Below, piece after piece: positions 27,757-40,362 of a stretch of 64,000 nucleotides of DNA. The notes below the pieces were generated by a model. It did no database searches, was not told where the DNA came from, and saw only the letters and a program-made list of their open reading frames with translations. Source of the DNA: Gemmatimonadota bacterium (lineage in GTDB: Bacteria > Gemmatimonadota > Gemmatimonadetes > Gemmatimonadales > GWC2-71-9); the NCBI GenBank assembly GCA_036679605.1, contig JAZDCZ010000427.1:20653-84652 (forward strand), given 5' to 3'. Numbering within the stretch: position 1 is the first letter of the stretch; every line of letters begins with the position of its first letter. The position numbers and the translations under genes are program-made.

Positions 27757-29058
27757 ATGAAAGTAGCTATCCTCGGCGCTGGCACTGCAGGATTCATGGC
27801 TGCCACGCATCTTTCACGGCACTTTCCGGAAATCGAGTTGATCCATATCTTCGACCCGAAGATAGGAACTATCGGCGTCGGGGAAGGAACGACGCCGGGT
27901 TTCCGATCCTGGTTGGCCCAGATAGCCCCCGTGGAATTCAAAACACTGAAGGGGGAATGTTACGCGACCGAGAAGCGTGGCATTCGATTTGAAAACTGGG
28001 GCAAAACGAATGAATTATTTTACAACGATTTTTTCCCTCGTGACCGTAGCGGATTACATATCTCTGCAGCACACCTTGTCACCTTCCTATCGACGTATGT
28101 CAACGTCGACCCGACCGCGGGACATGTCACAAGGTTGGAAGACCTAGGGGATTCGGTAGTAGTAGAAGTAGCTGGAGCGCCCAGCCTCACGGTGGATCTG
28201 GTTATCGACGCCCGCGGATTTCCCCGAGTCTTAGACCCGACCCAGCATCTTCGGCTCAATTGGATTCCAACCAACGCCGCGCTAGTGACTGCGGGACCGC
28301 CGGTCGATAGCACCGAACGCACTCGTGCCGTAGCCCGGTCGCATGGCTGGGTTTTCGTCATTCCCCTCACCCAGCATACGTCCTACGGTTATGTATGCAG
28401 CGAAGACTGTGTTGAGATCCAAGAGGTTGAGAACGATTTCTCGCTCTTTCTCAAGTCGGAGAGCGTGGCGCGGCACGACAGGCCCCGGTGCATTCGATTT
28501 CCCAATTTCGTGTGCCGAGAGCCGTTCCAAGGACGGGTTTGCAAGATCGGCAATGCAGCCTCGTTCATTGAGCCGCTCGAGGCAACCTCGATCGCCGTGG
28601 TGAAGGCCCAGTTGGAACTTCTTACTCCGTGGCTTAGGTTGTCCAGGCTTGGCTACAAAGGTCCAGTGGACGGGAAACTGGTGGCCCACATCAGCGGCGA
28701 GATGCGCGAACTCGTGCTCGAGTTGTCGTTGTTCGTAGCCTGGCATTATGGAATGGGATCCACATTCGAGACCCGGTTCTGGGAGCTTGCAAGATCACGA
28801 TTCCAGCAGGGGCTGCTCGAAACCGCATCAGACGAGTGTCGGCGGAAGTTCGATACTCACATGAAGCACGCGTCGCAGGTCCCCGTAGAGAAACTCGATC
28901 TCATACAAACCAGCAACGACCTCGACCACGTCATACCAGAGCACGTATCGTTTCCGAAACCCTTCGGCGGTATGTCGCCGATCGGATTTGCCCAACTCTC
29001 ACGCGGCATCGGCGATGTAGATAGGCTCTCCATAAAGGATTCGCTCGCACCGGCTTAG
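27757..29058 (+). CDS. Flavin-dependent halogenase (tryptophan halogenase family), short form
   Basis: GAGTAG, IGVGEGT, ATEKRGIRFENW (catalytic Lys position), GWVFVIPL and GNAASFIEPLEAT motifs. Confidence 0.88.
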   Translation: MKVAILGAGTAGFMAATHLSRHFPEIELIHIFDPKIGTIGVGEGTTPGFRSWLAQIAPVEFKTLKGECYATEKRGIRFENWGKTNELFYNDFFPRDRSGLHISAAHLVTFLSTYVNVDPTAGHVTRLEDLGDSVVVEVAGAPSLTVDLVIDARGFPRVLDPTQHLRLNWIPTNAALVTAGPPVDSTERTRAVARSHGWVFVIPLTQHTSYGYVCSEDCVEIQEVENDFSLFLKSESVARHDRPRCIRFPNFVCREPFQGRVCKIGNAASFIEPLEATSIAVVKAQLELLTPWLRLSRLGYKGPVDGKLVAHISGEMRELVLELSLFVAWHYGMGSTFETRFWELARSRFQQGLLETASDECRRKFDTHMKHASQVPVEKLDLIQTSNDLDHVIPEHVSFPKPFGGMSPIGFAQLSRGIGDVDRLSIKDSLAPA

Positions 29059-29108
29059 GTCGATTCGCGATCACGGAGGCTCACCCCAAGACAGTGGACT
29101 CAAGATAG

Positions 29109-31076
29109 ATGTGCGGAATAGTGGGATACCTGGGAAACAACGAGTCAACAGAACTCCTGATGCACGTCAGACGAGCCCTCCGAACGCTCGATCACAGAGG
29201 CCCAGACGACAGTGGCTTCGTAGTCTATGCGCCACGCGAGCGACGCGCGTATCTGATCGACAGGGACGACAACCGCAGTGCCATGAAGGAACCGTCAGAC
29301 GACGGGTTGCCGGCTCGCAATGTCGTGATAGGCCATAACCGCCTTGCCATAATGGACCCGACATCTGCCGGTCATCAGCCCATGCTCACACCCGATGGCC
29401 GTTATGTCCTACTCTACAACGGCGAGATCTACAACTACATCGAGTTGGGTAAGGAACTCGAGAACGCCGGATCTGTTTTTCGTTCCCGATGCGACACCGA
29501 AGTCCTGCTGCATGCATATGCGCGCTGGGGGAGCGGGTGTCTAACACGACTGGTGGGCATGTTTGCGTTCGCGGTCGTGGACACTAAGAAACAAAAGCTC
29601 TTCTTGGCGAGAGACTTCTTCGGAATGAAACCGCTGTACTACTCCACCCTGGAGGGGGACTTCGCGTTCGCGTCGGAAATCTCGGCACTGTTGGAATTGC
29701 CCAAGATCTCTCGCCGAGCCGATCCACAGGCCCTACTCGATTACATGGTTCGGGGAATGACCGATTTGGGTGCCAGTACAATGTTTGCCGACGTCAAGGC
29801 GCTTCCGGCCGCCCACTACGCGGAAGTCTCGCTCGCCGATCAAGAGACCATCAATCCTATTCGCTACTGGCAACCGAATCTCCACGACGAGCTGGAGATT
29901 TCCTTCGACGCCGCTGCTGCAAGACTGCGGGACATGTTTCTTGAAAGCGTGAGGCTTCACTTACGCAGTGATGCCCGAGTAGGGACTCTGTTGTCCGGGG
30001 GCATAGACTCGTCGGCGATCGTCATGGCCATGCGCGAGGTCGGGGGCGCCAACCTCGATATCGATACATTCAGCTACATAGGCGGCATCGGTGCAGTCAG
30101 CGAGGAACGCTGGATCGATTCCGTAAACGCCGCTGCGCGGGCCCGACCCCATAAGGTGTATCTCAAGCCAGACGACTGGTGGAATGACATCGGAGATCTA
30201 GTCGGGCTACAAGATGAACCCGTCGGCAGCGTCGCGATATACGTGCAAAACAGGGTGTTTCGCGCCGCCGCCGAGTCAGGGATTCGCGTAACGCTGGACG
30301 GACAGGGCGGTGACGAGCTACTGGCGGGATATCGACCGTTCTGGTCGGCACGGTTGGCGACACTTCTCAGAACGTTCAACTGGGGCTCCGCCAGGCAGTT
30401 CCTGAACAACCTATCACGATTCCGACAGCCCGGCGATCCACGAGCCAGCAGGATTACGGCGAGTGCGATTGCCTTGTTGGCGCCTGACAAGGCCACCGCG
30501 GCGATCAAGCAGTTGTTAGTGAAGCGCCGACATCCATGGTTGAATCATGAAGGAGTAAGTCTAGATGGGTTGATGGATCGCGCACACCGTCCCCCAGGCG
30601 TGGGCATTATGCGGCACGCGCTGTGGCGCTCGATTACTGAGGGAAGCCTGCCGCGATTGCTGCACTGGGAAGACCGCAATGCTATGGCGTACTCGGTAGA
30701 GGCTCGTCTGCCGTTTCTCACACGGCAGATCGCAGAGTTCTTGCTCGCGTTGCCGGAAAACTATCTCGTATCTCAAGACGGGATCAGCAAGGCCGTTTTC
30801 CGCGCCGCGATGAAGGATATCGTACCCGATGACGTTCTCGGACGTCGCGACAAGGTCGGGTTTTCGGTTCCGAACGCCTACTGGCTCACTCAACTCCCTG
30901 ACCTCGGAGCCCGCCTCGCTCTAGCTAGGGACATGGAGCTAGTTCAATCTTCCTGGCTGGATGCCACCCTGGAAACCTGCAAGGACGGAAAACTCGACTC
31001 TCGGAGAACATTCGTGCTGTGGCGTTTGCTGGGCCTGTCCGAGTGGACAAGGAAATTTGATGTAACGTTTGATTAG
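29109..31076 (+). CDS. asnB: Asparagine synthase (glutamine-hydrolysing)-like amidotransferase
   Basis: MCGIVG (Ntn Cys), HRGPD, NGEIYN, LSGGIDSS, DGQGGDE and EARLPF motifs. Confidence 0.9.
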   Translation: MCGIVGYLGNNESTELLMHVRRALRTLDHRGPDDSGFVVYAPRERRAYLIDRDDNRSAMKEPSDDGLPARNVVIGHNRLAIMDPTSAGHQPMLTPDGRYVLLYNGEIYNYIELGKELENAGSVFRSRCDTEVLLHAYARWGSGCLTRLVGMFAFAVVDTKKQKLFLARDFFGMKPLYYSTLEGDFAFASEISALLELPKISRRADPQALLDYMVRGMTDLGASTMFADVKALPAAHYAEVSLADQETINPIRYWQPNLHDELEISFDAAAARLRDMFLESVRLHLRSDARVGTLLSGGIDSSAIVMAMREVGGANLDIDTFSYIGGIGAVSEERWIDSVNAAARARPHKVYLKPDDWWNDIGDLVGLQDEPVGSVAIYVQNRVFRAAAESGIRVTLDGQGGDELLAGYRPFWSARLATLLRTFNWGSARQFLNNLSRFRQPGDPRASRITASAIALLAPDKATAAIKQLLVKRRHPWLNHEGVSLDGLMDRAHRPPGVGIMRHALWRSITEGSLPRLLHWEDRNAMAYSVEARLPFLTRQIAEFLLALPENYLVSQDGISKAVFRAAMKDIVPDDVLGRRDKVGFSVPNAYWLTQLPDLGARLALARDMELVQSSWLDATLETCKDGKLDSRRTFVLWRLLGLSEWTRKFDVTFD

Positions 31077-32008
31077 GCGGGGGCAACTGCGGGTTGGGCA
31101 CCGGAAGCTTGCCGACCGATGCCCAGCCTTGTGAGAAGCCAGTCCCAGTTGACGAAGACGAGGACCAACCATGTCTCGCCGACATGGACGTTCATCCCTA
31201 CGATTACCGCAATGTGAAACATGAGAGCCATTGGGATGAGAATCCAGCGGGCCTTTCGGCTGAACAAGACAAAGATGAAAGACCATTCAAACAATACGGT
31301 ACCAACACCTATCGCCAGGCACAAGAAGGGATGTTCCACAATCCAAAGTCCCAGGGCATGAAACCGTCCTTGGGTTGGGTCAACGTTGAACAGAAGAAAC
31401 CAGCGCCTGATATTCTCGGCTGAACTCCAGCTCAATCCTGTGGTTACGAGCTTGCCGTATGCTGAGAACAGATAGATCTGGGCCACGAAGAGTTGGATCA
31501 CTCGGAGAGGCCAACCGTATTGCCATGACGATAGGACGCCGCTTTGAGTGCGTTGCGACCTAGCCACCACTAGAGCGTCCCCACAGCGTGAGAAAGCCAA
31601 TACCAGCAGGCCAATCGGAGCCAAGGTCAGACCGCGCCCATAGGGCACAGCGCCCCACATTATTGTTTCGAGAGGTGCAAGGTGATAGATCAAGATACCA
31701 GCCAAAAAACACGACAGGCGAGGTAGAATCCCGAACAGGGCCGCGGAGAGCACGACAATCAAGATCGTCTGCAGGACCTCTTCAATAGCTGCATGTCCGG
31801 GGAATAGTAGGAATCTCCACTGCCGGCTCAGGGGCACGGTAGCCCAAAAATCCTGCAGCCCCGATACCGCGGCATAGTCACGTGACAAGATGATCCAGAG
31901 CGAGTGTGCCGCCAGCAGTATGCGCGCGGCAGCAAGGTTGCGAGCTACGTCCGGTGTGAACCATAGACTGTTCCAAATGCCCCTGATACCTTCTAACACT
32001 TGTATCAT
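31073..32008 (-). CDS. HTTM-domain (vitamin K-dependent carboxylase/SdpB-like) membrane protein
   Basis: LAAARI, multiple TM helices, QIYLFSAYGKL...W, FE...MFH motifs. Start reassigned to ATG 32008 (ATGA overlap). Confidence 0.75.
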   Translation of the reverse strand: MIQVLEGIRGIWNSLWFTPDVARNLAAARILLAAHSLWIILSRDYAAVSGLQDFWATVPLSRQWRFLLFPGHAAIEEVLQTILIVVLSAALFGILPRLSCFLAGILIYHLAPLETIMWGAVPYGRGLTLAPIGLLVLAFSRCGDALVVARSQRTQSGVLSSWQYGWPLRVIQLFVAQIYLFSAYGKLVTTGLSWSSAENIRRWFLLFNVDPTQGRFHALGLWIVEHPFLCLAIGVGTVLFEWSFIFVLFSRKARWILIPMALMFHIAVIVGMNVHVGETWLVLVFVNWDWLLTRLGIGRQASGAQPAVAPA

Positions 32009-32649
32009 TGAGGTTTCGAGTATTCGTAAAGTGGCACCAGTCGCATTGTGGACATGTCTTGGTACATTGCCTCCAGATCCCAAATACTTCGATACCACCT
32101 GACTGCAACAAAGCGATCTGCCGGCACATCATCTGGATTCAGCCACCCTGGCGGGTATATCATGTGCGCTGGTGCTACGAGCGGCCCAAGAAACCGACCT
32201 AGGTAGCCGGGTTCTTTTCCTTTCCGAACATTCTGGCGGGCCCGATTCATCTGTCTGAGGAAATACTCTCCGACCTTGCCTTGCTGTTCACGAGTAAGGC
32301 CCACAAAGTCTTGTAGCATCCATGTGCCGAGTTCGTGGGCGTTCAACGGCTCGAAGGCTCTGTAGTCTACCGGATACTCTTTGCCATCAGCCGTTACTCC
32401 GAAGGTACGCCAATCGGGCCAGCCTCCACCCGACTGGGTACGAGTAACGAGATCCCAGGATGAGAAGGGCCAGAGATTGATCCGAAGTACGGCGTTCCCA
32501 AAACTGATGACGACTACGTACACGAGAAGCAGCGTTATGAGTGCGCGCTGTCGGCGTTCGGACTTCACCTTACCAAGCAGGAACACAAGGGACCAACCCG
32601 CCACGATGAAGCCTCCAAACTCCACCGCAGCTACGATGTCAGTCATCAC
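32005..32649 (-). CDS. Membrane-anchored hypothetical protein, probable HTTM partner
   Basis: Two TM helices then LWPFSSW; translationally coupled to the HTTM gene. Confidence 0.65.
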   Translation of the reverse strand: MMTDIVAAVEFGGFIVAGWSLVFLLGKVKSERRQRALITLLLVYVVVISFGNAVLRINLWPFSSWDLVTRTQSGGGWPDWRTFGVTADGKEYPVDYRAFEPLNAHELGTWMLQDFVGLTREQQGKVGEYFLRQMNRARQNVRKGKEPGYLGRFLGPLVAPAHMIYPPGWLNPDDVPADRFVAVRWYRSIWDLEAMYQDMSTMRLVPLYEYSKPQ

Positions 32650-33556
32650 TCGGCAGCCTCACTTGGGCCTCCTTGCTGTTCGCCAGTCGGACGAAGCCGT
32701 CATGGCAACAGAGCTGCCACCCGTAACCGGTAGCATGAGCAATCCCGGGACGATCGTGAACAGAAGTTCGTTCGAACCCCATGACGGCTTTGTACCTGAT
32801 TCTCGACCCCCTCGAATCGACCAACGGTTCAGTGTAGCGAGGAAACAACCCCTTCATGAAGTGCCATACGCGTTCAACGTCCCAATGTGTAAAGTCGACC
32901 ATCGGCACGTTGGTTCCTACGCTCGGGGCGCAAGTCGCTAGAGTATCGTCCTGCACCCGCGCTTCGTTCATCAGACTATCCAGGTTTGCCACCACCCTTC
33001 TGACCAGGTCTCCACCGAGACGCGACAACTTCGCATACATCTCCTCTATCGGCTCTCCGCGACGAAGCTCCGTGCCCGCTTGGGCAAGGATCGGCCCGGC
33101 GTCGACACGCTCCGTGACCACGTGAACGGTGACCCCGGTAGTTCGATCATTGTGATAGTAGGTCCAGAAATATGGGTTCGGCCCACGGTGTCTGGGCAAC
33201 AGTGACGGATGCATGTTAATCACCCCTCGCCCAGACAGGGCGAGTAAGTTCGCCCCAAGAATCCAAGGGAATGTGGCGATACAGACCAAGTCCGGGCATT
33301 CGGATCGCATCATGCCGGCAACATGGGGATCGTTTCCAGATGAAGTTGTCACCGTTGGAACACGCGCTCGCTTGACCCATTCAGTGACGGGATCCTTCTT
33401 CAATAGACCGATTGTCCTAGCCGTACGCCCGACCGCCCGTCTCCAGAATGGACTCCGAGACCGTGGGCGTACCACAATCACATCATGCTCGGCCGCCACC
33501 GCCGTAAGCGGCAAAAGCCCCATCAATCCTCCCGACACGAAGAACACGACTTTCAT
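32639..33556 (-). CDS. Formyltransferase family protein (Fmt N-terminal domain-like)
   Basis: INMHPSLLPRHRGPNP and GVTVHVVTERVDAGPI motifs. Confidence 0.88.
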   Translation of the reverse strand: MKVVFFVSGGLMGLLPLTAVAAEHDVIVVRPRSRSPFWRRAVGRTARTIGLLKKDPVTEWVKRARVPTVTTSSGNDPHVAGMMRSECPDLVCIATFPWILGANLLALSGRGVINMHPSLLPRHRGPNPYFWTYYHNDRTTGVTVHVVTERVDAGPILAQAGTELRRGEPIEEMYAKLSRLGGDLVRRVVANLDSLMNEARVQDDTLATCAPSVGTNVPMVDFTHWDVERVWHFMKGLFPRYTEPLVDSRGSRIRYKAVMGFERTSVHDRPGIAHATGYGWQLCCHDGFVRLANSKEAQVRLPSDD

Positions 33557-33610
33557 CCTGTCCGTCTCGGGCCTTGACTACTCGGGGACCTTCGATGCAT
33601 TCGTAGGGTC

Positions 33611-34159
33611 ATGAAAGATCGGACGAAAGCACAGATAATTCCTCCGCCCCTACTGGAGAGCTTCGCAGATTTGTTACGAAATTCAGGTCGCACTGTCGAA
33701 TCTATCATGGTCGGCAGCAGCATGTCTCCCTCGATACCAAATGGCTCGCCCATCCGCATCAAATGTGGCCGCCCCCAGCAACTTAACATCGGCGGTGTAG
33801 TGGTCTACTTCAGGAATAGTCACCCCGTGACCGGTCATCGCGTTGTAGGCTGGGGGCGACGGAACCACGTTAAGGATCTCGTTGTGACCCGTGGTGACGG
33901 CAACCTGGTGTGCGATGTACCTACGCCCCGGAGTACGGTCCTAGGAGTGGTAACGGAGTTCTGTCTCGCCGGAGAATGGCATCCGGTGCCGACTTACCGA
34001 CGGGCGGGTCCAGTGCATAGGGCCATAGCAACCACACTCAAGGCTACGACTCTACTGGCTCTAGACGTCCATCCAAATCTTGGTAACTGGTTCGCCCTCA
34101 CAATGGTGCGGCTTGCCCACATCGCACGCCTATCACTCCAAAAGGTCGGCATCCGGTAG
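33611..34159 (+). CDS. S24/S26 family peptidase (Ser-His, SipW/ER-type-like)
   Basis: GSSMSPSI, GHRVV and TRGDGN motifs. Confidence 0.8.
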   Translation: MKDRTKAQIIPPPLLESFADLLRNSGRTVESIMVGSSMSPSIPNGSPIRIKCGRPQQLNIGGVVVYFRNSHPVTGHRVVGWGRRNHVKDLVVTRGDGNLVCDVPTPRSTVLGVVTEFCLAGEWHPVPTYRRAGPVHRAIATTLKATTLLALDVHPNLGNWFALTMVRLAHIARLSLQKVGIR

Positions 34160-34924
34160 TGACGCGGCTCGCCCCGCCGCCCTCGACCGCAACTCTTCTG
34201 ACATTCTCGCAGCGACTGCGATCTCCGCTCGATCAAATCCAGCCTCTCGTCTTTCGTCTTCGGCCACTGGGTACCGATTCATGTGGGCCCCCTTCTCGAA
34301 CACATACTCGAACGCGCTCACGGCCTCAGTGAGAGCACTGGCCATAGCAAGCACGTTCTTCGGATCCTTCCGAACCTGGGCCCGCACCCAGTGGTTGGCG
34401 AAGCCTACATGCAGTATTTCGTCGGCCTGTTGGGAGTCCATCATCTCTGCGAGCGCTTCGTCACCTTCTGCACGCGCCTCTGCGACCGCAAACGTGGCCG
34501 CATCCAACCCGTCGGCCTCGAAGGTCCTGTTCTCCACCGCCAACCGACCGATCAGCGTGTCTATCTTCTGCAAGATTCTGTACTGGAAGTTCAACACAGG
34601 ATAGTCGCCGACCTCCACACCGCGCTGCCGCATGATACGCAAGTACGCCAATACGTGCCGTGCCTCGTCCGAACATTGGCGCGCCAGGCTCTTTCGAACA
34701 TCCCAGTCGGCATCTGGAAAATCAACGATGCTCTTGGCGGCATTCTCCATCACATTTGCTTCTTCGTTCATTTGTCGATGAAAGAATTCCAAGCGGTATT
34801 CGTTACTACCAACCCGAAAACTTACCAATTCCTTCCAACGGTCCTTGACCTCGAACCTGGAATCGCGAGCTGGGTCGTCGGCAAGTATCGACTCCAAGAC
34901 CTGAGATCTGGGAGCGTCGGTCAT
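34133..34924 (-). CDS. Ferritin-like diiron protein (DUF455-like)
   Basis: HRQMNEE, DEARH, RTFEA and DEILH: two ExxH motifs in a four-helix bundle spacing. Confidence 0.82.
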   Translation of the reverse strand: MTDAPRSQVLESILADDPARDSRFEVKDRWKELVSFRVGSNEYRLEFFHRQMNEEANVMENAAKSIVDFPDADWDVRKSLARQCSDEARHVLAYLRIMRQRGVEVGDYPVLNFQYRILQKIDTLIGRLAVENRTFEADGLDAATFAVAEARAEGDEALAEMMDSQQADEILHVGFANHWVRAQVRKDPKNVLAMASALTEAVSAFEYVFEKGAHMNRYPVAEDERREAGFDRAEIAVAARMSEELRSRAAGRAASLPDADLLE

Positions 34925-35925
34925 TGTGATTCCTCGCTGTCTTGGTGTCCTCGTTCACCCTCGATCGCGGAAACCAGCGATTCATCCTCCTCCATCAACC
35001 GCTCCAATTGAGCGACGGCGGCCTCCGGGCTGCGCGAATCCAGATAATGGCACGGCACACTGGCAACCAAAGAAAGAATTGACATCAATTGTGGTCCCCG
35101 CCCGGCGCCCCACAGGCAACAAGCCAAGGGGGAAAACAAACGGACGTTCCGACGGATAGGACCTACGCTCTCCAACTTAGTCTGGTGCCCAAAGCGCCGT
35201 AAGCAAACGACTCGTCGCAGTGGCACTGGACGGGCACGCGCAGCGGGAAATAAGTCCGAAACACTTGCCCGTCGCCGCACACTACCGTCCGGAAACCGCT
35301 CAGTCCGGACCTCACAGCTCTCTAACGCCCGGCGAACCTCTGGTGCGGATGGGCCCGACCGCAGGGACACAGAGAGACGCATCGGCAGCAAAGTACTAGT
35401 GTCACCCCGAACGGCAGCCACCTCGTCCCCAAGAAAATCATGTCCGCGAGCCGCCAGTCCAAGAGACAAAGTCGTCTTGCCCGATCCCTTCGGTCCCGTG
35501 ATGAGGAGACCCTTGCCATGCACGCCCACCGACGCGGCATGGAGAAACAGCACATTGCGCTGGAGCGTCAGAACATGACTTACGGCAAGGTTCCGAACCA
35601 AGTCGCACCATTGTTGGCGACCGTCCGCAAGGACCTGGTTGCGGCAAAATCCGTAGCGCTCCGCCGTTCCACGCGCCAGGATTTGCCAGTCTCGGAGTCC
35701 AGAGCTTACCCACTCGTACCCTCTCCCCGAGAACAGGAACCCGGTGAGTGAAGCTAGATCCACTGGCTTGCCACTTTGGGAGGAAACAAGAATCAAATCG
35801 CCTTGCTCCGACGAACACAGAGTGTAGCTAACGATCGTTCCCTGTTTTCCTACGTGCGGACTGACCCGGCATTCCCTGTATAGTTGATCAAACTGCCTTC
35901 GGAATTCAATTTGACGAGCCCGCAA
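34921..35925 (-). CDS. HPr kinase-like P-loop kinase; start uncertain
   Basis: LFLHAASV, GPKGSGKTT (Walker A) and FLGDE motifs. The frame is open upstream of 35925 up to the precursor stop. Confidence 0.82.
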   Translation of the reverse strand: MRARQIEFRRQFDQLYRECRVSPHVGKQGTIVSYTLCSSEQGDLILVSSQSGKPVDLASLTGFLFSGRGYEWVSSGLRDWQILARGTAERYGFCRNQVLADGRQQWCDLVRNLAVSHVLTLQRNVLFLHAASVGVHGKGLLITGPKGSGKTTLSLGLAARGHDFLGDEVAAVRGDTSTLLPMRLSVSLRSGPSAPEVRRALESCEVRTERFPDGSVRRRASVSDLFPAARARPVPLRRVVCLRRFGHQTKLESVGPIRRNVRLFSPLACCLWGAGRGPQLMSILSLVASVPCHYLDSRSPEAAVAQLERLMEEDESLVSAIEGERGHQDSEESQ

Positions 35926-36102
35926 ACTTAGGAAGCCGTCACCGAGCCGATACCAGTGGGTATCGCCCGAAGGCGAGGACTCTAAGAGAGGAATGCGGGC
36001 AATGCTTGTGGCCAGCCAGTTACGATCGCTAGGTGACGCTGCAGGATCTCTAGCTGGTTCGTCGTGGCTCGACCTAGCTTCGCATCGGTGTAGGCTCGAA
36101 GC

Positions 36103-36225
36103 TCAGCCCGTCCACCAGGTCGCTGCGGCCACATGCACCTGGAATGCCGCCAGAATCTCCGACTCGTCCATCACCTGCAGTTTGGGGGGCTCATACTTGG
36201 GTTTGGGATTGTTCGTGGATTCCAT
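36103..36225 (-). CDS. Putative RiPP precursor peptide, 40 aa: MESTNNPKPKYEPPKLQVMDESEILAAFQVHVAAATWWTG
   Basis: Manual translation; GAGGT RBS upstream; YxxPxL RRE-binding leader motif; lies directly downstream of the PqqD/RRE gene. Confidence 0.85.
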   Translation of the reverse strand: MESTNNPKPKYEPPKLQVMDESEILAAFQVHVAAATWWTG

Positions 36226-36267
36226 ATAGTGACCTCACGGCTAGATGGTTACGGGTAACAAACAGTA

Positions 36268-36555
36268 TCACTGTGCCACGGCCGGCGCAACCATGCTCAG
36301 TTCGGTAAACTGCTGCATAGCAGCTTGCACATCGTGCTCGACCTTTTCTTCATCCGCACCCTCAAACCCGGTACAGATCTCCGTTACTATCTCGCTCTCC
36401 GTGCGGGGACTCTCCAACAAGTCCCACATGAAGGCGGCTGTAGGATTGAGTACACAAAACTTGTTGGTAGCGGAGTCGTAGAGCACTGTTTCGCCACGCA
36501 TCGGCGCCGCCTCTACAGTCGGGTTTCTCACGTATTGCGTCACTGCGTGCTCCAT
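36268..36555 (-). CDS. PqqD family RiPP recognition element (RRE)
   Basis: 95 aa; GETVLYD...FCVLNPTAAFMWDLL...EIVTEIC...VEHDVQAAMQQF. Confidence 0.92.
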   Translation of the reverse strand: MEHAVTQYVRNPTVEAAPMRGETVLYDSATNKFCVLNPTAAFMWDLLESPRTESEIVTEICTGFEGADEEKVEHDVQAAMQQFTELSMVAPAVAQ

Positions 36556-36621
36556 CCTCGAAAAAACGGTCTTCTCAGATAGCGCAGAAGCACGTCCATT
36601 GTCAAGCGCCTAGGAACTGGA

Positions 36622-37464
36622 TCACTCAGCTCGTCGCCACCTCCGCAACAGCCGAAACGGCGCCACTAACTGTCCCGCTAGCGACTCCGCCATCGTCACA
36701 TCCGATATGCCATAGGAATCCGGCCGTTCCCGCTCCTCCGCAGCTGTTCCGAACAGGAAATCCCAGACGCTGAACATCAAACCGAGGTTCTTGTTGTAGT
36801 ACCTGGCGTCCGGCGAGTGATGGATCGAGTGGAAGACCGGACTCACAACGACCCTGTAGAATGGTCCCAACCGCCAATCCAGCTCGGCGTGCTGCAATGC
36901 CTGGAGACCGGTCATAACAATCCATAGGGGCAGCCAGGTGGCCGTGGGAATCCCCAAGACCAGCACGAATATTATGAACGACACCAGATCCGTATACAGA
37001 AACTCCAATGGGTGACGGCGGTACTGAGTCAGTGTTGTGAGCCGCTCCTGAGAGTGGTGGATCGTGTGGAACGCCCAGAACCACTGATTCGCATGCTGTA
37101 GGCGGTGAATCCAATAGAGGATAAAGTCGAAACCGACTAAGTAGATGGCAAGTTGAACCGCAAGCGGCAACCCAGGGAGCAATTCGAGTTTCAGGAACTC
37201 CAAGTGGGGTTGCAGAGCGTTGGCAGTGGCAGCATAGACCAATTGAGTGTAAAGACCGCTGCGATAGAAGAGCGCGTATGCTGCATCCACAAGGAAGCCC
37301 CGAGTCGCATATCGCGCCGTTACTGTACCCTTCCGTCGTTCAAATAGGTAGACAATAAGAACGATGAGGCAAACCAGAACCGCACCACGCACAACCGACC
37401 GCCCCAACACACCGAGCTGAGTGGCTGCGACTAGTTGTTCTACGATTTCGATGATGTGCTCCAT
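36622..37464 (-). CDS. Sterol desaturase/fatty acid hydroxylase family membrane diiron enzyme
   Basis: His boxes YWIHRLQH, FHTIHHS, QHAE and FHSIHHS; N-x-G...WDFLFGT. Confidence 0.9.
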   Translation of the reverse strand: MEHIIEIVEQLVAATQLGVLGRSVVRGAVLVCLIVLIVYLFERRKGTVTARYATRGFLVDAAYALFYRSGLYTQLVYAATANALQPHLEFLKLELLPGLPLAVQLAIYLVGFDFILYWIHRLQHANQWFWAFHTIHHSQERLTTLTQYRRHPLEFLYTDLVSFIIFVLVLGIPTATWLPLWIVMTGLQALQHAELDWRLGPFYRVVVSPVFHSIHHSPDARYYNKNLGLMFSVWDFLFGTAAEERERPDSYGISDVTMAESLAGQLVAPFRLLRRWRRAE

Positions 37465-37679
37465 TTATGAAGATCAATCCCTAGTTGCCATCATACACAT
37501 TCTTCACAGTTGCCGCGAGAGAAGGCCCTATCTTACTTCTTCAAGATCAGTCTAGTAAACTTGAGTCTGGTCGAGCCGCGATGCCGTTCTCGCAAGCCAT
37601 TTATGGAAGATCACTAGCGGCTCGACTCGGTGGTTCCATCTGCGGCACCACCGATCATCCGAGCACTCCGGGAGGCCCA

Positions 37680-38243
37680 ATGGGATTATCCGTCCGTGAA
37701 CGCGCCGACGTGGTTGCCACGTTTCGGTTCATCTCGGTCTACTTGATGGAAACACTGGCGCGGTGGGTACCCACCACACCAGAACTCGAGGTCAAGGTGT
37801 TGTTTGGCCGACACCTGTGGGATCTGGCTCAACACGCAGACGCGTTCGGCAAGCGAACCGCCGAATTGCGCCTAGCAGTACAGGCTTCGCGGGAACCGAC
37901 AACTCAATTTATGAAGGTTCTCAAGGAATTCGCGCAGGTTGGCGATACGGCCGAGCGGGTCGATGGGTTCTACGCCGGAGTCATGCCGGGACTGGAAGTG
38001 GTGTACCGCAACTTCCTGGATACGACTGACCCGATCATGGACGAGCCGACTGTCCGGATTGTCGAGCGGGTTCTTATAGACTTTACACGAATGCGAGACG
38101 ACCGCGAGAAGCTGCGAACCGAGCAACCGGAGATCGCGCTGACTGAAAACCAATGGGTGAGCAAACTCTCAGAGGCTGGCGGCAGCTTTCGCGACATCGT
38201 CGATTTTCGGCCGGCACCGCAGACACCCGCCACAGTCTCATGA
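37680..38243 (+). CDS. Degenerate ferritin-like protein
   Basis: GGAGG RBS before ATG 37680; helical, HLWDLAQHAD in place of DExxH; ATGA overlap with the next gene. Confidence 0.65.
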   Translation: MGLSVRERADVVATFRFISVYLMETLARWVPTTPELEVKVLFGRHLWDLAQHADAFGKRTAELRLAVQASREPTTQFMKVLKEFAQVGDTAERVDGFYAGVMPGLEVVYRNFLDTTDPIMDEPTVRIVERVLIDFTRMRDDREKLRTEQPEIALTENQWVSKLSEAGGSFRDIVDFRPAPQTPATVS

Positions 38244-39046
38244 ATAACGGAGACTTCGACACCAGGGTCGTACGCGGCGTCACCCTGATCGAAGATCCGG
38301 CACGGGAAAACTGTTTCACCTGCGCCGATACCGCCGCAGATATGCAACAATGGCCCGACATGTCGGACATCTCTCGGCGTGAGCGCCTCCACCGTCACAT
38401 GAACAATGAGTGCGGTGCCTTGGAGATCGCCGCCCAGTGTATCGCTGACTTTCCCGATGCGCCCTGGGAACTGAGGATGAGTCTTGCCAATCAGGCCGCC
38501 GATGAGGCCCGACACGCTGCGATGCTACTCCGCAGAGTCAAGGAGTTGGGAGGACATAAAGGCGAATTTCCGGTCAACAACCTGGAATGGGGCCTTTCCC
38601 TGATGCTCGATAATCTTCCAGGGCGGCTCGCCGTTCAGAACCGTACCTTCGAGGCAGGTCTCATTGACCTTCTGGGGTCCCTTCGCAACGTCTGGCGTGA
38701 AGCTGGAGATGAAACTACAGCAGAACTTCTCGACGGCATCCTCGCCGACGAAATCGTTCACGTTCGCTTCGGCAATCGTTGGATCAAACGCATGACGGAG
38801 AAAGACCCAACCGTTCTTCTCAAGGTGGCCAACTCGATCCGCGTGCTAGGGGAAGCTCTTGCCGGATTGGAAGTGGACGGTGAGGTCAACGCATCGGGTT
38901 TCATCATCTCTCCGAAGTTGCCACCGGCAGTCTATGTCCAGGGGCGGCTGGAAGCAGACTTTACCGAAGAAGAGGTCAAGGAAGTACTTCGACAGGCGGG
39001 CTTCCGCTCGATCATTCCTCACGAGCTGACCTTAGAAACTTCTTGA
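38240..39046 (+). CDS. Ferritin-like diiron protein (DUF455-like), paralog of 34133-34924
   Basis: HRHMNNE, DFPDAPW, DEARH, RLAVQNRTFEA and DEIVH motifs. Start reassigned to ATG 38240. Confidence 0.85.
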   Translation: MNNGDFDTRVVRGVTLIEDPARENCFTCADTAADMQQWPDMSDISRRERLHRHMNNECGALEIAAQCIADFPDAPWELRMSLANQAADEARHAAMLLRRVKELGGHKGEFPVNNLEWGLSLMLDNLPGRLAVQNRTFEAGLIDLLGSLRNVWREAGDETTAELLDGILADEIVHVRFGNRWIKRMTEKDPTVLLKVANSIRVLGEALAGLEVDGEVNASGFIISPKLPPAVYVQGRLEADFTEEEVKEVLRQAGFRSIIPHELTLETS

Positions 39047-39081
39047 TGACTTGACGGCGACGGCCAAGTGAATCCCAAGCG

Positions 39082-40362
39082 ATGCTGACCCCGCAACAAG
39101 AGTTAGTCCTGTTGCTGGCGGGCCACTTTGAATCGTCCACCAAAAAGCTGGACAAACTTGCCGAATCGGTAGACTGGCAGGCATTCCTCCACGCCACACC
39201 CGCCAATCCACACCCCTACCTGGCCTACCGCATCGAACAGACTATCGGGCCGAGCCGCCTGACCGACAACGCCTGGAACGTCTTAGCCGACGCCCGGCGC
39301 GCCAACTCCATGGGCCAACTCCAACGTCAGGCTACACTGCGAAAAATGTTCGCCGCGTTGGACGCCGCCGGTATTCCCACTATGGTGGTCAAGGGCATGG
39401 CCCTGGCATATCTGGTATACGCGGATCCTGGACTGCGGCCTATGAGCGACATCGACCTCTGGGTCCAGCCTTCCAATCTGGACCGCGCAACAGCCGCGCT
39501 CTTGGATGCCGGACTGCAACATCCCACTCGTTTCTACGAAGGTAAAGGAGACCCTCGCAGGCCGACCCTGATGCTGGAACAGCCGGGCACGCGAGGACTG
39601 GTTGAGCTTCATGGAGAATTGTATTCGCTCAACGCCCTGCCCGCATCATGGGTCGAGCAGGCATGGAATAGCAAGATCAAGGTTCTCCTAGGCGGAATCG
39701 AATCCTGGGTTCTCGACCCGCGCCACACGCTCGTTCACCTCTCTCTGCACTACGCTCGTGTACACCTGTTCAGTACTGGACTGGTGGGGCTGATCGACAT
39801 CTTTCTTACCGTGGAACGCTGGGAAGACGATTGGGACTGGCCCAAAATGGCAGCATCATATCGAGAACTGGGGATCGAAAATTGGATGTACCTAACCCTT
39901 CACCTCGCTCGTAAGATGCTCGGGGCTCCTGTGCCGGACTCTTTCTTTGAGGCGCTCGGCCAACCCGACCGAATAGACGAAATGGAGACCCTCGCGACCA
40001 GACAAGTCTGGGAAGGGCATGAGAACACACTTTTCCCGGCGCTCCGAGGTGTGCTCGCGACAACCTCACTACGCGATAGATTGAACTACCTATGGCAACG
40101 CATGAGCACATTTTACCTGCCGAAGAAAGACAAATCCCGCAACCCCTTCACGAACGCCGTAAGATTCGGCCGCAGCGCAATCTTCGACCTTTCTGTCAAG
40201 CTCCCGCGGTATATGGCTGCCTGGAAGAGAGGTGATCTCCGCGGATCTGAACGACGGCGAAGAATCCAACTCGCGAAACAACGCGGGCACCTTGCCCAGT
40301 TGGTGGAACAGTCAGCACCTGCCGCAGGCGTGCAGGCCAAGAACACCGCCGGCACAACTTGA
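39082..40362 (+). CDS. Nucleotidyltransferase family protein (NTP_transf_5-like)
   Basis: VVKGMALAYLVY...RPMSDIDLWV, VELH and HLSLH motifs. Confidence 0.85.
   Translation: MLTPQQELVLLLAGHFESSTKKLDKLAESVDWQAFLHATPANPHPYLAYRIEQTIGPSRLTDNAWNVLADARRANSMGQLQRQATLRKMFAALDAAGIPTMVVKGMALAYLVYADPGLRPMSDIDLWVQPSNLDRATAALLDAGLQHPTRFYEGKGDPRRPTLMLEQPGTRGLVELHGELYSLNALPASWVEQAWNSKIKVLLGGIESWVLDPRHTLVHLSLHYARVHLFSTGLVGLIDIFLTVERWEDDWDWPKMAASYRELGIENWMYLTLHLARKMLGAPVPDSFFEALGQPDRIDEMETLATRQVWEGHENTLFPALRGVLATTSLRDRLNYLWQRMSTFYLPKKDKSRNPFTNAVRFGRSAIFDLSVKLPRYMAAWKRGDLRGSERRRRIQLAKQRGHLAQLVEQSAPAAGVQAKNTAGTT

Follow-up and report, generated by a model that had tools for sequence, protein, structure and literature searches.

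A conserved and apparently undescribed RiPP cassette combines a Trp-Trp precursor with a candidate class-defining ferritin-like enzyme

Introduction

In the pathways of pyrroloquinoline quinone (PQQ) and mycofactocin, a tiny core with two aromatic residues is combined with a recognition element (RRE) for peptides made on the ribosome and modified after translation (RiPPs), a peptidase, oxidases, and a radical S-adenosylmethionine (radical-SAM) enzyme, and there is no exporter. For the lasso peptide pseudomycoidin, excerpts of PMC6993621 report that PsmK phosphorylates the C-terminal Ser and that PsmN is required for the addition of a hexose. The di-iron enzymes AetD and SktA, which have another fold, oxidise free brominated Trp according to passages of PMC13108848. 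In the literature searched, no ferritin-like di-iron enzyme was found in the oxidative families of RiPP biosynthesis, and no function was found assigned to the ferritin-like family DUF455 (PF04305) in titles, the beginnings of abstracts, and passages; PMC4520260 and PMC9988556 mention the family once each. The DNA analysed here, a stretch of 64,000 nucleotides from a Gemmatimonadota bacterium (contig JAZDCZ010000427.1, positions 20,653 to 84,652; referred to as the window), contains a gene cluster that encodes two DUF455 proteins, FerA and FerB, a third protein with a predicted ferritin fold, FerC, and a precursor peptide with a Trp-Trp motif.

The cluster contains the components of an RRE-dependent RiPP pathway: a short conserved precursor with a leader motif, an RRE, and a peptidase. 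The cassette is real and conserved, it has apparently not been described before, and its enzyme is a candidate for defining a RiPP class. A literature search found no paper on the FerABC cassette, and the large supplementary tables of RRE-mining studies could already list such clusters. FerABC is probably a heteromeric O2-activating di-iron enzyme, which oxygenates, and perhaps links, both indoles of the Trp-Trp motif, before a peptidase frees a product of 3–5 residues.

Results

FerA and FerB are paralogous, predicted di-iron proteins

FerA and FerB share 41% identity over 196 residues (BLASTP E-value 3e-48), and both exceed the gathering cut-off of DUF455 (Table 1). The motifs that a preliminary description of the window had listed for the two genes are all present in the translations, as HRQMNEE, DFPDADW, DEARH, RLAVENRTFEA, and DEILH in FerA and as HRHMNNE, DFPDAPW, DEARH, RLAVQNRTFEA, and DEIVH in FerB. 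Each protein contains the complete set of four Glu and two His (E, ExxH, E, ExxH) predicted to bind two iron ions, and the naming of the two as paralogous DUF455-like di-iron proteins in the preliminary description holds at the level of sequence. All six ligands are kept in 120 of 120 FerB homologues, which are the best 120 of 1713 matches. Those of FerA are kept in all 119 homologues taken from the best 120 of 1546 matches, except for E169, which is present in 118, with one gap. The register of the FerA ligands fits the alignment to bacterioferritin, which is the best sequence-profile match of FerA and a weak one (E-value 0.3).

Predicted structure models cover FerB and FerC. The model of FerB (predicted local distance difference test, pLDDT, 87) has a ferritin-like fold, with chains of the ferritin superfamily as top matches and Z-scores of up to 16.0. 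Its best Foldseek matches are an aldehyde-deformylating oxygenase and the azoxy synthase VlmB, with a best E-value of 0.002. The Pfam and Foldseek assignment that had been suggested as a check thus gives the family and the predicted fold, but it does not name the reaction. Sequence searches of the PDB with FerB and with the FerA profile returned only weak matches to bacterioferritin and aldehyde decarbonylase, plus a spurious repeat protein. Matches of FerB beyond DUF455 in the ESM Atlas all score below 0.9 and are mere leads.

In a quick tree of 78 rows, in which the long branches of fusion proteins are unreliable, FerA and FerB form separate clades (Shimodaira–Hasegawa-like approximate likelihood ratio test support 99 and 99), which are sisters (97), span three phyla, and stand apart from solo DUF455 proteins. 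Since the clades are separate and supported across three phyla, both copies have been retained. An apparent FerB–FerA fusion (P0305) looks like a join produced by a frameshift and was set aside. Elsewhere in the source genome (C206:3026-4180, L200), another ferritin-like di-iron protein of 385 amino acids (aa), which scores below the DUF455 cut-off, follows an acyltransferase-like gene.

FerC is a likely partner subunit without metal ligands

The gene of FerC starts with an ATG preceded by GGAGG, and its end overlaps the start of the FerB gene as ATGA (38240–38243). The protein contains the motif DLAQH, and it has no Pfam family at E-values of up to 0.1 and no NCBIfam match. Its model is a helical four-helix bundle of high confidence (pLDDT 92.5), which agrees with the preliminary description of a helical, ATGA-coupled product that keeps this motif. 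The top fold matches are chains of the ferritin superfamily with Z-scores of 12–15, among them 8w1d (Z 15.2) and 1t0q_B (Z 14.7, root-mean-square deviation 3.0, 172 residues aligned); 2inn_C and 1mhy_B are also matched. The last three are non-catalytic chains. Helical bundles reach such Z-scores easily, and the fold by itself is therefore moderate evidence. At the positions of FerC that a weak profile register equates with the ligands, the prevailing residues are Ser, Leu/Phe, His/Gln, Phe/Leu, and Met/Leu.

Direct comparison of FerC with FerB is non-significant (BLAST E-value 0.3, hhalign E-value 0.08), as are the sequence and profile comparisons with FerA. Therefore, the kinship of FerC is based solely on the fold and on distant relatives in which a FerC-like domain is fused to a DUF455 domain. 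Eight weak DUF455 matches in a sample of 401 genomes from the phylum of the window bear a FerC-like domain in front. The seven fusions viewed in wider regions are about 460 aa long. Their N-terminal domain is FerC-like (hhalign 99.7%, E-value 7e-26), and it aligns to FerB with an E-value of 2e-4, placing DLAQH in register with DEARH, whereas the C-terminal domain resembles FerA (97.9%) and FerB (97.2%). A search of the whole library with the FerC profile found 966 relatives. Among the best 150 of these, 35 are at least 290 aa long, and 23 of the 35 are FerC–DUF455 fusions with both ExxH motifs; the FerC-like domain itself retains ExxH in 10 of the 35. Weak DUF455 matches on the FerC-type domain come from distant relatives only.

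The fusions support a partnership of FerC with DUF455 proteins. From the fusion family we infer that FerC–FerB may be a split fusion, the catalytic half of which was duplicated. FerC is likely a degenerate relative of the catalytic DUF455 proteins that serves as a structural partner subunit. The degenerate third subunit of the preliminary description is thus supported by the fold and the fusions, but not by direct similarity to FerB, and the same two lines support its pairing of catalytic with metal-free subunits. In one locus (L229) FerB is apart and FerC lies ahead of FerA, and in another (L118) FerC follows the kinase gene, downstream of FerB–FerA; therefore, FerC is not bound to FerB alone. 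Pairwise identities of FerC correlate about equally with those of FerB (0.67) and FerA (0.64) and so do not tell which of the two FerC follows; since related genomes have a common history, the correlations are no evidence of co-evolution. A search of 401 Pseudomonadota genomes with the FerC profile found the seed genome only.

The fusion proteins form a family of 390–550 aa in which the FerC-like domain is degenerate and the DUF455-like di-iron domain is intact (L193–L199, L212, L216, L238, L239; P0392, P0417, and 21 more). They were placed in seven wide regions from the phylum of the window and in two wide regions and two short loci from Acidobacteriota genomes. In seven other proteins (P0390, P0396, P0400–P0403, P0418) a FerC-like domain that keeps one ExxH is joined to a different, unnamed C-terminal domain. 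Acidobacteriota loci L233–L237 and L240 encode a distinct ferritin-like family of about 220 aa, several members of which have a conserved IPGC/LPGC tail. A plasmid search returned nothing cassette-like; a Geobacillus DUF455 gene found there sits among insertion elements.

The precursor carries an invariant Trp-Trp motif

The 79 distinct homologues of the precursor share a plan of YxxP, ExxL and FQ, at least seven small residues, Trp-Trp, and a short tail of one to eight residues. The Tyr and Pro of YxxP are invariant (79/79), and so is Trp-Trp. Trp is the only residue present in all 79 cores after FQ, and Cys, Asp, Glu, Lys, Arg, and Tyr are absent from all of them. Within the core, nothing but the Trp-Trp motif is both invariant and readily oxidisable. 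A profile of the leader alone retrieved 109 open reading frames (ORFs), 104 of which passed an automatic check for WW; the remaining five are parsing misses, the peptides of which carry WW or match one that does. Codon-position entropies of the precursor are 0.91, 0.68, and 1.46, with the third position the most variable.

Cleavage by signal peptidase I follows a small-x-small rule. Core position 7 is Gly, Ala, or Ser in 78 of 79 precursors, position 9 is Ser or Thr in 71, and Ser or Thr occupies position 8 or 9 in 78; positions 7 and 9 therefore fit the rule. Two clusters (L052, L053) contain two precursor copies each with identical cores, and the RRE is relocated beside the second copy.

The cassette is conserved across phyla

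Loci with FerB patterns were taken from genomes (64) and from metagenomes (the best 80 of 217). They originate from Gemmatimonadota, Acidobacteriota, and a few Proteobacteria and were chosen by similarity to FerB; each co-occurrence was counted over the loci with enough sequence. FerC is present in 122 of 122, FerA in 116 of 116, the HPr-kinase-like gene in 74 of 74, the precursor in 73 of 74, the RRE in 72 of 74, and the S26 peptidase in 74 of 75. The single locus without the precursor is an 8.8-kb rearranged contig that starts inside the kinase gene, and the split, duplicated form was accompanied by the precursor wherever the sequence allowed. All six genes occur in each of the 33 FerB loci (31 distinct) with at least 8 kb on each side. 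These 33 loci also contain the formyltransferase (29), the amidotransferase (27), the nucleotidyltransferase (27, by profile), and the HTTM pair (21). The order RRE–precursor–kinase–FerC–FerB is kept in 64 of 74 loci.

A second sample was based on the family and not on similarity to FerB. When the 401 genomes from the phylum of the window were searched with Pfam DUF455, 16 exceeded the cut-off, each with two such genes. The 15 genomes other than the source all contain the RRE, precursor, kinase, and FerC, and 14 of them the S26 peptidase; the contig of the remaining one ends earlier. This sample was drawn from the same collection as the genome loci, which it may overlap, and related genomes in it are not independent. 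Seven of 301 Acidobacteriota genomes exceed the cut-off, and four of these, including the seed, have the pair together with the cassette. The preliminary description would have been contradicted by homologs occurring mostly without an RRE or precursor; the pair is almost always accompanied by both.

Neither the 14 cluster genes in the window nor the recurrent neighbours that were scanned include a radical-SAM maturase, and an ORF with an ATP-binding cassette (ABC) signature occurs in only one of 56 loci. In 29 loci (L058:3444-4523 and 28 others) a His-rich membrane protein without a name, about 360 aa long, is encoded, mostly directly after FerA, at the place that the fatty-acid hydroxylase has in other loci; it has no Pfam or NCBIfam family, matches only unnamed clusters, and was not found in the window. 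Loci L020, L046, L049, and L075 have a gene of the aspartyl/asparaginyl beta-hydroxylase family inserted just upstream of the RRE.

Other genes of the cluster in the window

The window contains a rearranged copy of the cassette. FerC, FerB, and FerA are contiguous in 100 of 100 related loci with room, whereas in the window a distance of 3.3 kb separates FerA from FerB, the two are on opposite strands, and the HPr-kinase-like gene, the precursor ORF, the RRE, and the membrane hydroxylase are located between FerA and FerC (Table 1). The kinase gene is ATGA-coupled to FerA at 34921–34924. One contig from a public sequencing run, which may be the source of this DNA, spans the arrangement without differences. 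The kinase and the PqqD-family protein miss the cut-offs of the HPr-rel-A families TIGR04352/TIGR04353 (49.3 versus 200 and 28.6 versus 35 bits). The G+C content of the cluster (27757–40362) is 0.567, and that of the flanks 0.606 and 0.586, which is a weak hint of transfer. Scans for promoters and terminators gave results at or below chance, and Rfam gave no match.

Table 1 Features of the FerABC cluster in the window
Feature	Position	Strand	Description	Support
FerA	34133..34924	-	DUF455 ferritin-like protein, 263 aa; predicted di-iron ligands E55, E87, H90, E136, E169, H172	PF04305 92 bits vs cut-off 34.3
FerB	38240..39046	+	DUF455 ferritin-like protein, 268 aa; predicted di-iron ligands E57, E89, H92, E138, E171, H174	PF04305 99.2 bits vs cut-off 34.3
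FerC	37680..38243	+	ligand-less ferritin-fold protein, 187 aa; likely partner subunit	
Precursor peptide	36103..36225	-	40 aa; YxxP leader, ExxL, FQ, small-residue linker, tail WWTG	
RRE, PqqD family	36268..36555	-	95 aa	PF05402 52.7 bits vs cut-off 23.4
HPr-kinase-like P-loop protein	34921..35925	-	His, GxxGxGKT, and DE motifs conserved	PF07475 E 1e-6, below cut-off
S26 signal-peptidase-I-like Ser/His peptidase	33611..34159	+	likely leader peptidase; GxSM and HR conserved	TIGR02228 E 8e-11, below cut-off
Membrane His-box enzyme	36622..37464	-	fatty-acid hydroxylase/sterol desaturase family	PF04116 99 bits
Nucleotidyltransferase	39082..40362	+	NTP_transf_5	PF14907 141 bits
Formyltransferase	32639..33556	-		PF00551 96 bits
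Unnamed protein	32005..32649	-	214 aa, paired with HTTM gene	no Pfam/NCBIfam match
HTTM-like membrane protein	31073..32098	-		PF05090 weak (E 0.005); above cut-off in a relative
Amidotransferase	29109..31076	+	glutamine-dependent, asparagine-synthase type	TIGR01536 396 bits vs cut-off 267
Trp-halogenase-like flavoprotein	27757..29058	+	cluster edge, membership uncertain	PF04820 152 bits; solved Trp halogenases E 1e-21

The tryptophan-halogenase-like gene is short (433 aa) and ends 51 bases ahead of the amidotransferase gene. It has no homologue in 192 loci scanned or in further loci, and it could add a tailoring reaction, peculiar to this cluster, to the Trp-Trp product. A second pair of an HPr-kinase-like and an RRE-containing gene, without a Trp-Trp precursor, is located at C89:33559-34931 of the source genome.

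Discussion

The proposed pathway and the evidence against it

Oxygenation of Trp-Trp by FerABC is the favoured reading because, apart from the trio and a variable membrane protein, the cassette has no constant enzyme that could plausibly oxidise, and no target other than Trp-Trp is invariant. The preliminary description proposed a heteromeric oxidase that hydroxylates or cross-links the Trp-Trp motif or cleaves its rings; this is partly supported, with no result that tells the three reactions apart. The chemical steps of the pathway are inferred throughout. By analogy with lasso-type RREs, the YxxP leader is likely bound by the RRE. FerC is likely the structural partner of both FerA and FerB, in C–B and C–A pairs or in one larger complex, and the two di-iron sites likely perform different steps, either one on each Trp or a hydroxylation followed by ring-to-ring coupling. 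Since no reductase gene recurs in the cluster, housekeeping carriers would supply the electrons. Phosphorylation by the kinase would take place either on the Ser or Thr that directly precedes WW or on a newly formed indole hydroxyl, and the added phosphate would then be extended by the nucleotidyltransferase. Cleavage by the S26 peptidase behind the small-x-Ser/Thr site would free about 3–5 residues, which the formyltransferase and amidotransferase would cap.

Several observations weigh against this reading. Profile searches found neither an RRE nor a precursor beside the placed FerC–DUF455 fusions, five of which directly precede a gene of a glycoside hydrolase family 38 (GH38) mannosidase. 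Three of the seven Acidobacteriota genomes above the cut-off carry a solo DUF455 gene without the cassette; since the pair, by contrast, occurs with the cassette almost without fail, it is the split pair, and not DUF455 as a whole, that is tied to the peptide. A membrane His-box protein, which is either the fatty-acid hydroxylase or the unnamed His-rich protein, is present in 33 of the 33 well-covered loci; it is no less constant than the trio and may take part in the oxidation. Ferredoxin and reductase genes are not recurrent in the loci, with only loose motif matches in 9 of 56. Dps, bacterioferritin, and oxygenases tie at Z-scores of 15–16 as fold matches of FerB, and the fold therefore cannot name the reaction. 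The searches found no characterised close relative, the best Foldseek E-value being 0.002. The putative S26 cut site is suggested by the residue pattern only, with Ser or Thr at position 9.

Alternative explanations

It is possible, although unlikely, that FerABC works as an oxidase of the radical type and merely joins the two indoles by a cross-link (−2 Da, C–C or C–N) without inserting oxygen, which would result in a strained bis-indole mini-cycle. The two Trp residues are adjacent and invariant, and the cluster has no recurrent reductase. Furthermore, a Tyr lies four residues past the first ligand His of FerA in 119 of 119 close homologues, which equals the spacing between H118 and Y122, the radical residue of ribonucleotide reductase R2 (numbering from an excerpt of PMC4686667). 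However, among 56 complete loci the position is Tyr in 39, Phe in 16, and unread in one, the Phe variants being those of Acidobacteriota and Proteobacteria, and the equivalent position of FerB is Leu in 139 of 144. Therefore, an R2-type tyrosyl radical is not a family-wide feature; it was rejected for FerA, and the cross-linking explanation has lost support. A single coupling would also not obviously require two retained catalytic paralogues.

An improbable alternative is that Trp-Trp is heavily oxidised and excised as a small quinone-type cofactor or pigment that stays inside the cell or its membrane and that the kinase and nucleotidyltransferase provide with a handle, either a phosphate or a nucleotide. 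The variable length of the tail that follows WW, one to eight residues, and the lack of a recurrent dehydrogenase partner in the loci argue against such a product, whereas the very short core, in which two aromatic residues are invariant, the RRE, the peptidase, and the near absence of an exporter are in agreement with it. The kinase is universal, the nucleotidyltransferase is present in at least 27 of 33 loci, and several membrane redox-type proteins could use the product; however, the two handle-adding enzymes are already explained by the phospho-hexose tailoring of lasso peptides, for which excerpts of PMC6993621 provide a precedent. In its boldest form, which is a long shot, a split, duplicated oxygenase turns Trp-Trp into a cross-linked indole quinone that is excised with its handle as a new redox cofactor or pigment. 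Such a quinone would follow PQQ and mycofactocin and serve membrane enzymes of uncultured Gemmatimonadota and Acidobacteriota.

The trio could also act on a non-peptide substrate, such as a lipid, a sugar, or a building block of an envelope polymer, while the peptide is a carrier, a signal, or the substrate of other enzymes. Formyltransferase, amidotransferase, and hydroxylase families include enzymes that act on sugars and lipids. Polysaccharide genes (glycosyltransferases, Wzz, WecG, epimerases) adjoin several loci, and the precursor-free fusions, some of them beside GH38 genes, point in the same direction. The sugar genes vary, however, whereas the conserved gene order from the RRE to FerB and the constant company of the split, duplicated form with the precursor make this explanation quite improbable.

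It is highly improbable that FerA and FerB are ferroxidase, iron-storage, or electron-supply helpers of the membrane His-box enzymes and not tailoring enzymes, as the fold matches to Dps and bacterioferritin and the FerA profile match to the latter would allow, because the proteins of about 265 aa have conserved extra helices and aromatic residues outside the bundle, their extent is nearer to that of oxygenases (178–194 residues aligned versus about 140), and their linkage to the precursor and RRE is tighter than that to either membrane enzyme.

Significance

The cassette provides DUF455, a family without a function, with a concrete candidate substrate. If the proposed oxygenation is confirmed, ferritin-like di-iron enzymes would join the oxidative families that define RiPP classes, and oxidised Trp-Trp would represent a new route to peptide natural products. 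The compound would be a natural product of poorly cultured phyla of soils and sediments. The FerC–DUF455 fusions point to a wider, unrecognised family of two-domain di-iron enzymes.

Comparison with known systems

FerA and FerB belong to DUF455 by score and keep its di-iron motifs; they differ from other members in forming their own sister clades tied to a precursor peptide. Like PaaA/PaaC and the toluene, phenol, and methane hydroxylases, FerABC combines catalytic proteins with a ligand-less subunit of the same fold, here at the level of genes and predicted fold, and chains of such enzymes are among the fold matches of FerC. By contrast, the catalytic proteins of FerABC are two different paralogues, each about 265 aa long, its substrate is likely a peptide, its cluster contains no recurrent reductase, ferredoxin, or effector gene, and PF02332 is matched with 18 bits versus a cut-off of 24.4. 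The MNIO oxidases, exemplified by MbnBC, share with the predicted role of FerABC a non-haem multi-iron enzyme with a non-catalytic partner and the O2-dependent oxidation of a precursor peptide, according to parts of PMC9060507. There, MbnB is described as a TIM-barrel DUF692 protein acting on Cys, whereas the predicted fold in FerABC is a ferritin-like bundle, which the partner shares, and the core contains no Cys. The trio thus resembles the PaaA/PaaC heteromers in layout and MbnBC in its predicted role without belonging to either group. Di-iron oxidation of tryptophan would be common to FerABC and AetD/SktA; however, the latter have a heme-oxygenase-like (HDO) fold and free amino acids as substrates, as stated in passages of PMC13108848. 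The cassette shares the tiny core with two aromatic residues, the RRE, the peptidase, candidate oxidases, and the lack of an exporter with the pathways of PQQ and mycofactocin, from which it differs by its Trp-Trp motif and the lack of a radical-SAM enzyme.

In the paeninodin and pseudomycoidin lasso clusters, excerpts of PMC6993621 describe a YxxP-type leader, a stand-alone RRE, an HPr-kinase-like kinase, and an uncharacterised nucleotidyltransferase, all of which have counterparts in the FerABC cassette. A lasso peptide was considered and rejected. The amidotransferase scores as an asparagine synthase and reaches only 291 bits against the cut-off of 525 of NF033535, and 0 of 79 cores have an Asp or Glu after FQ that could serve as ring acceptor. 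Unlike the lasso clusters, the cassette lacks a lasso cyclase, a conserved C-terminal Ser, and an ABC exporter, and an S26 peptidase is present where no B2 protease was seen. The DUF455 trio takes the place that the cyclase occupies in lasso clusters.

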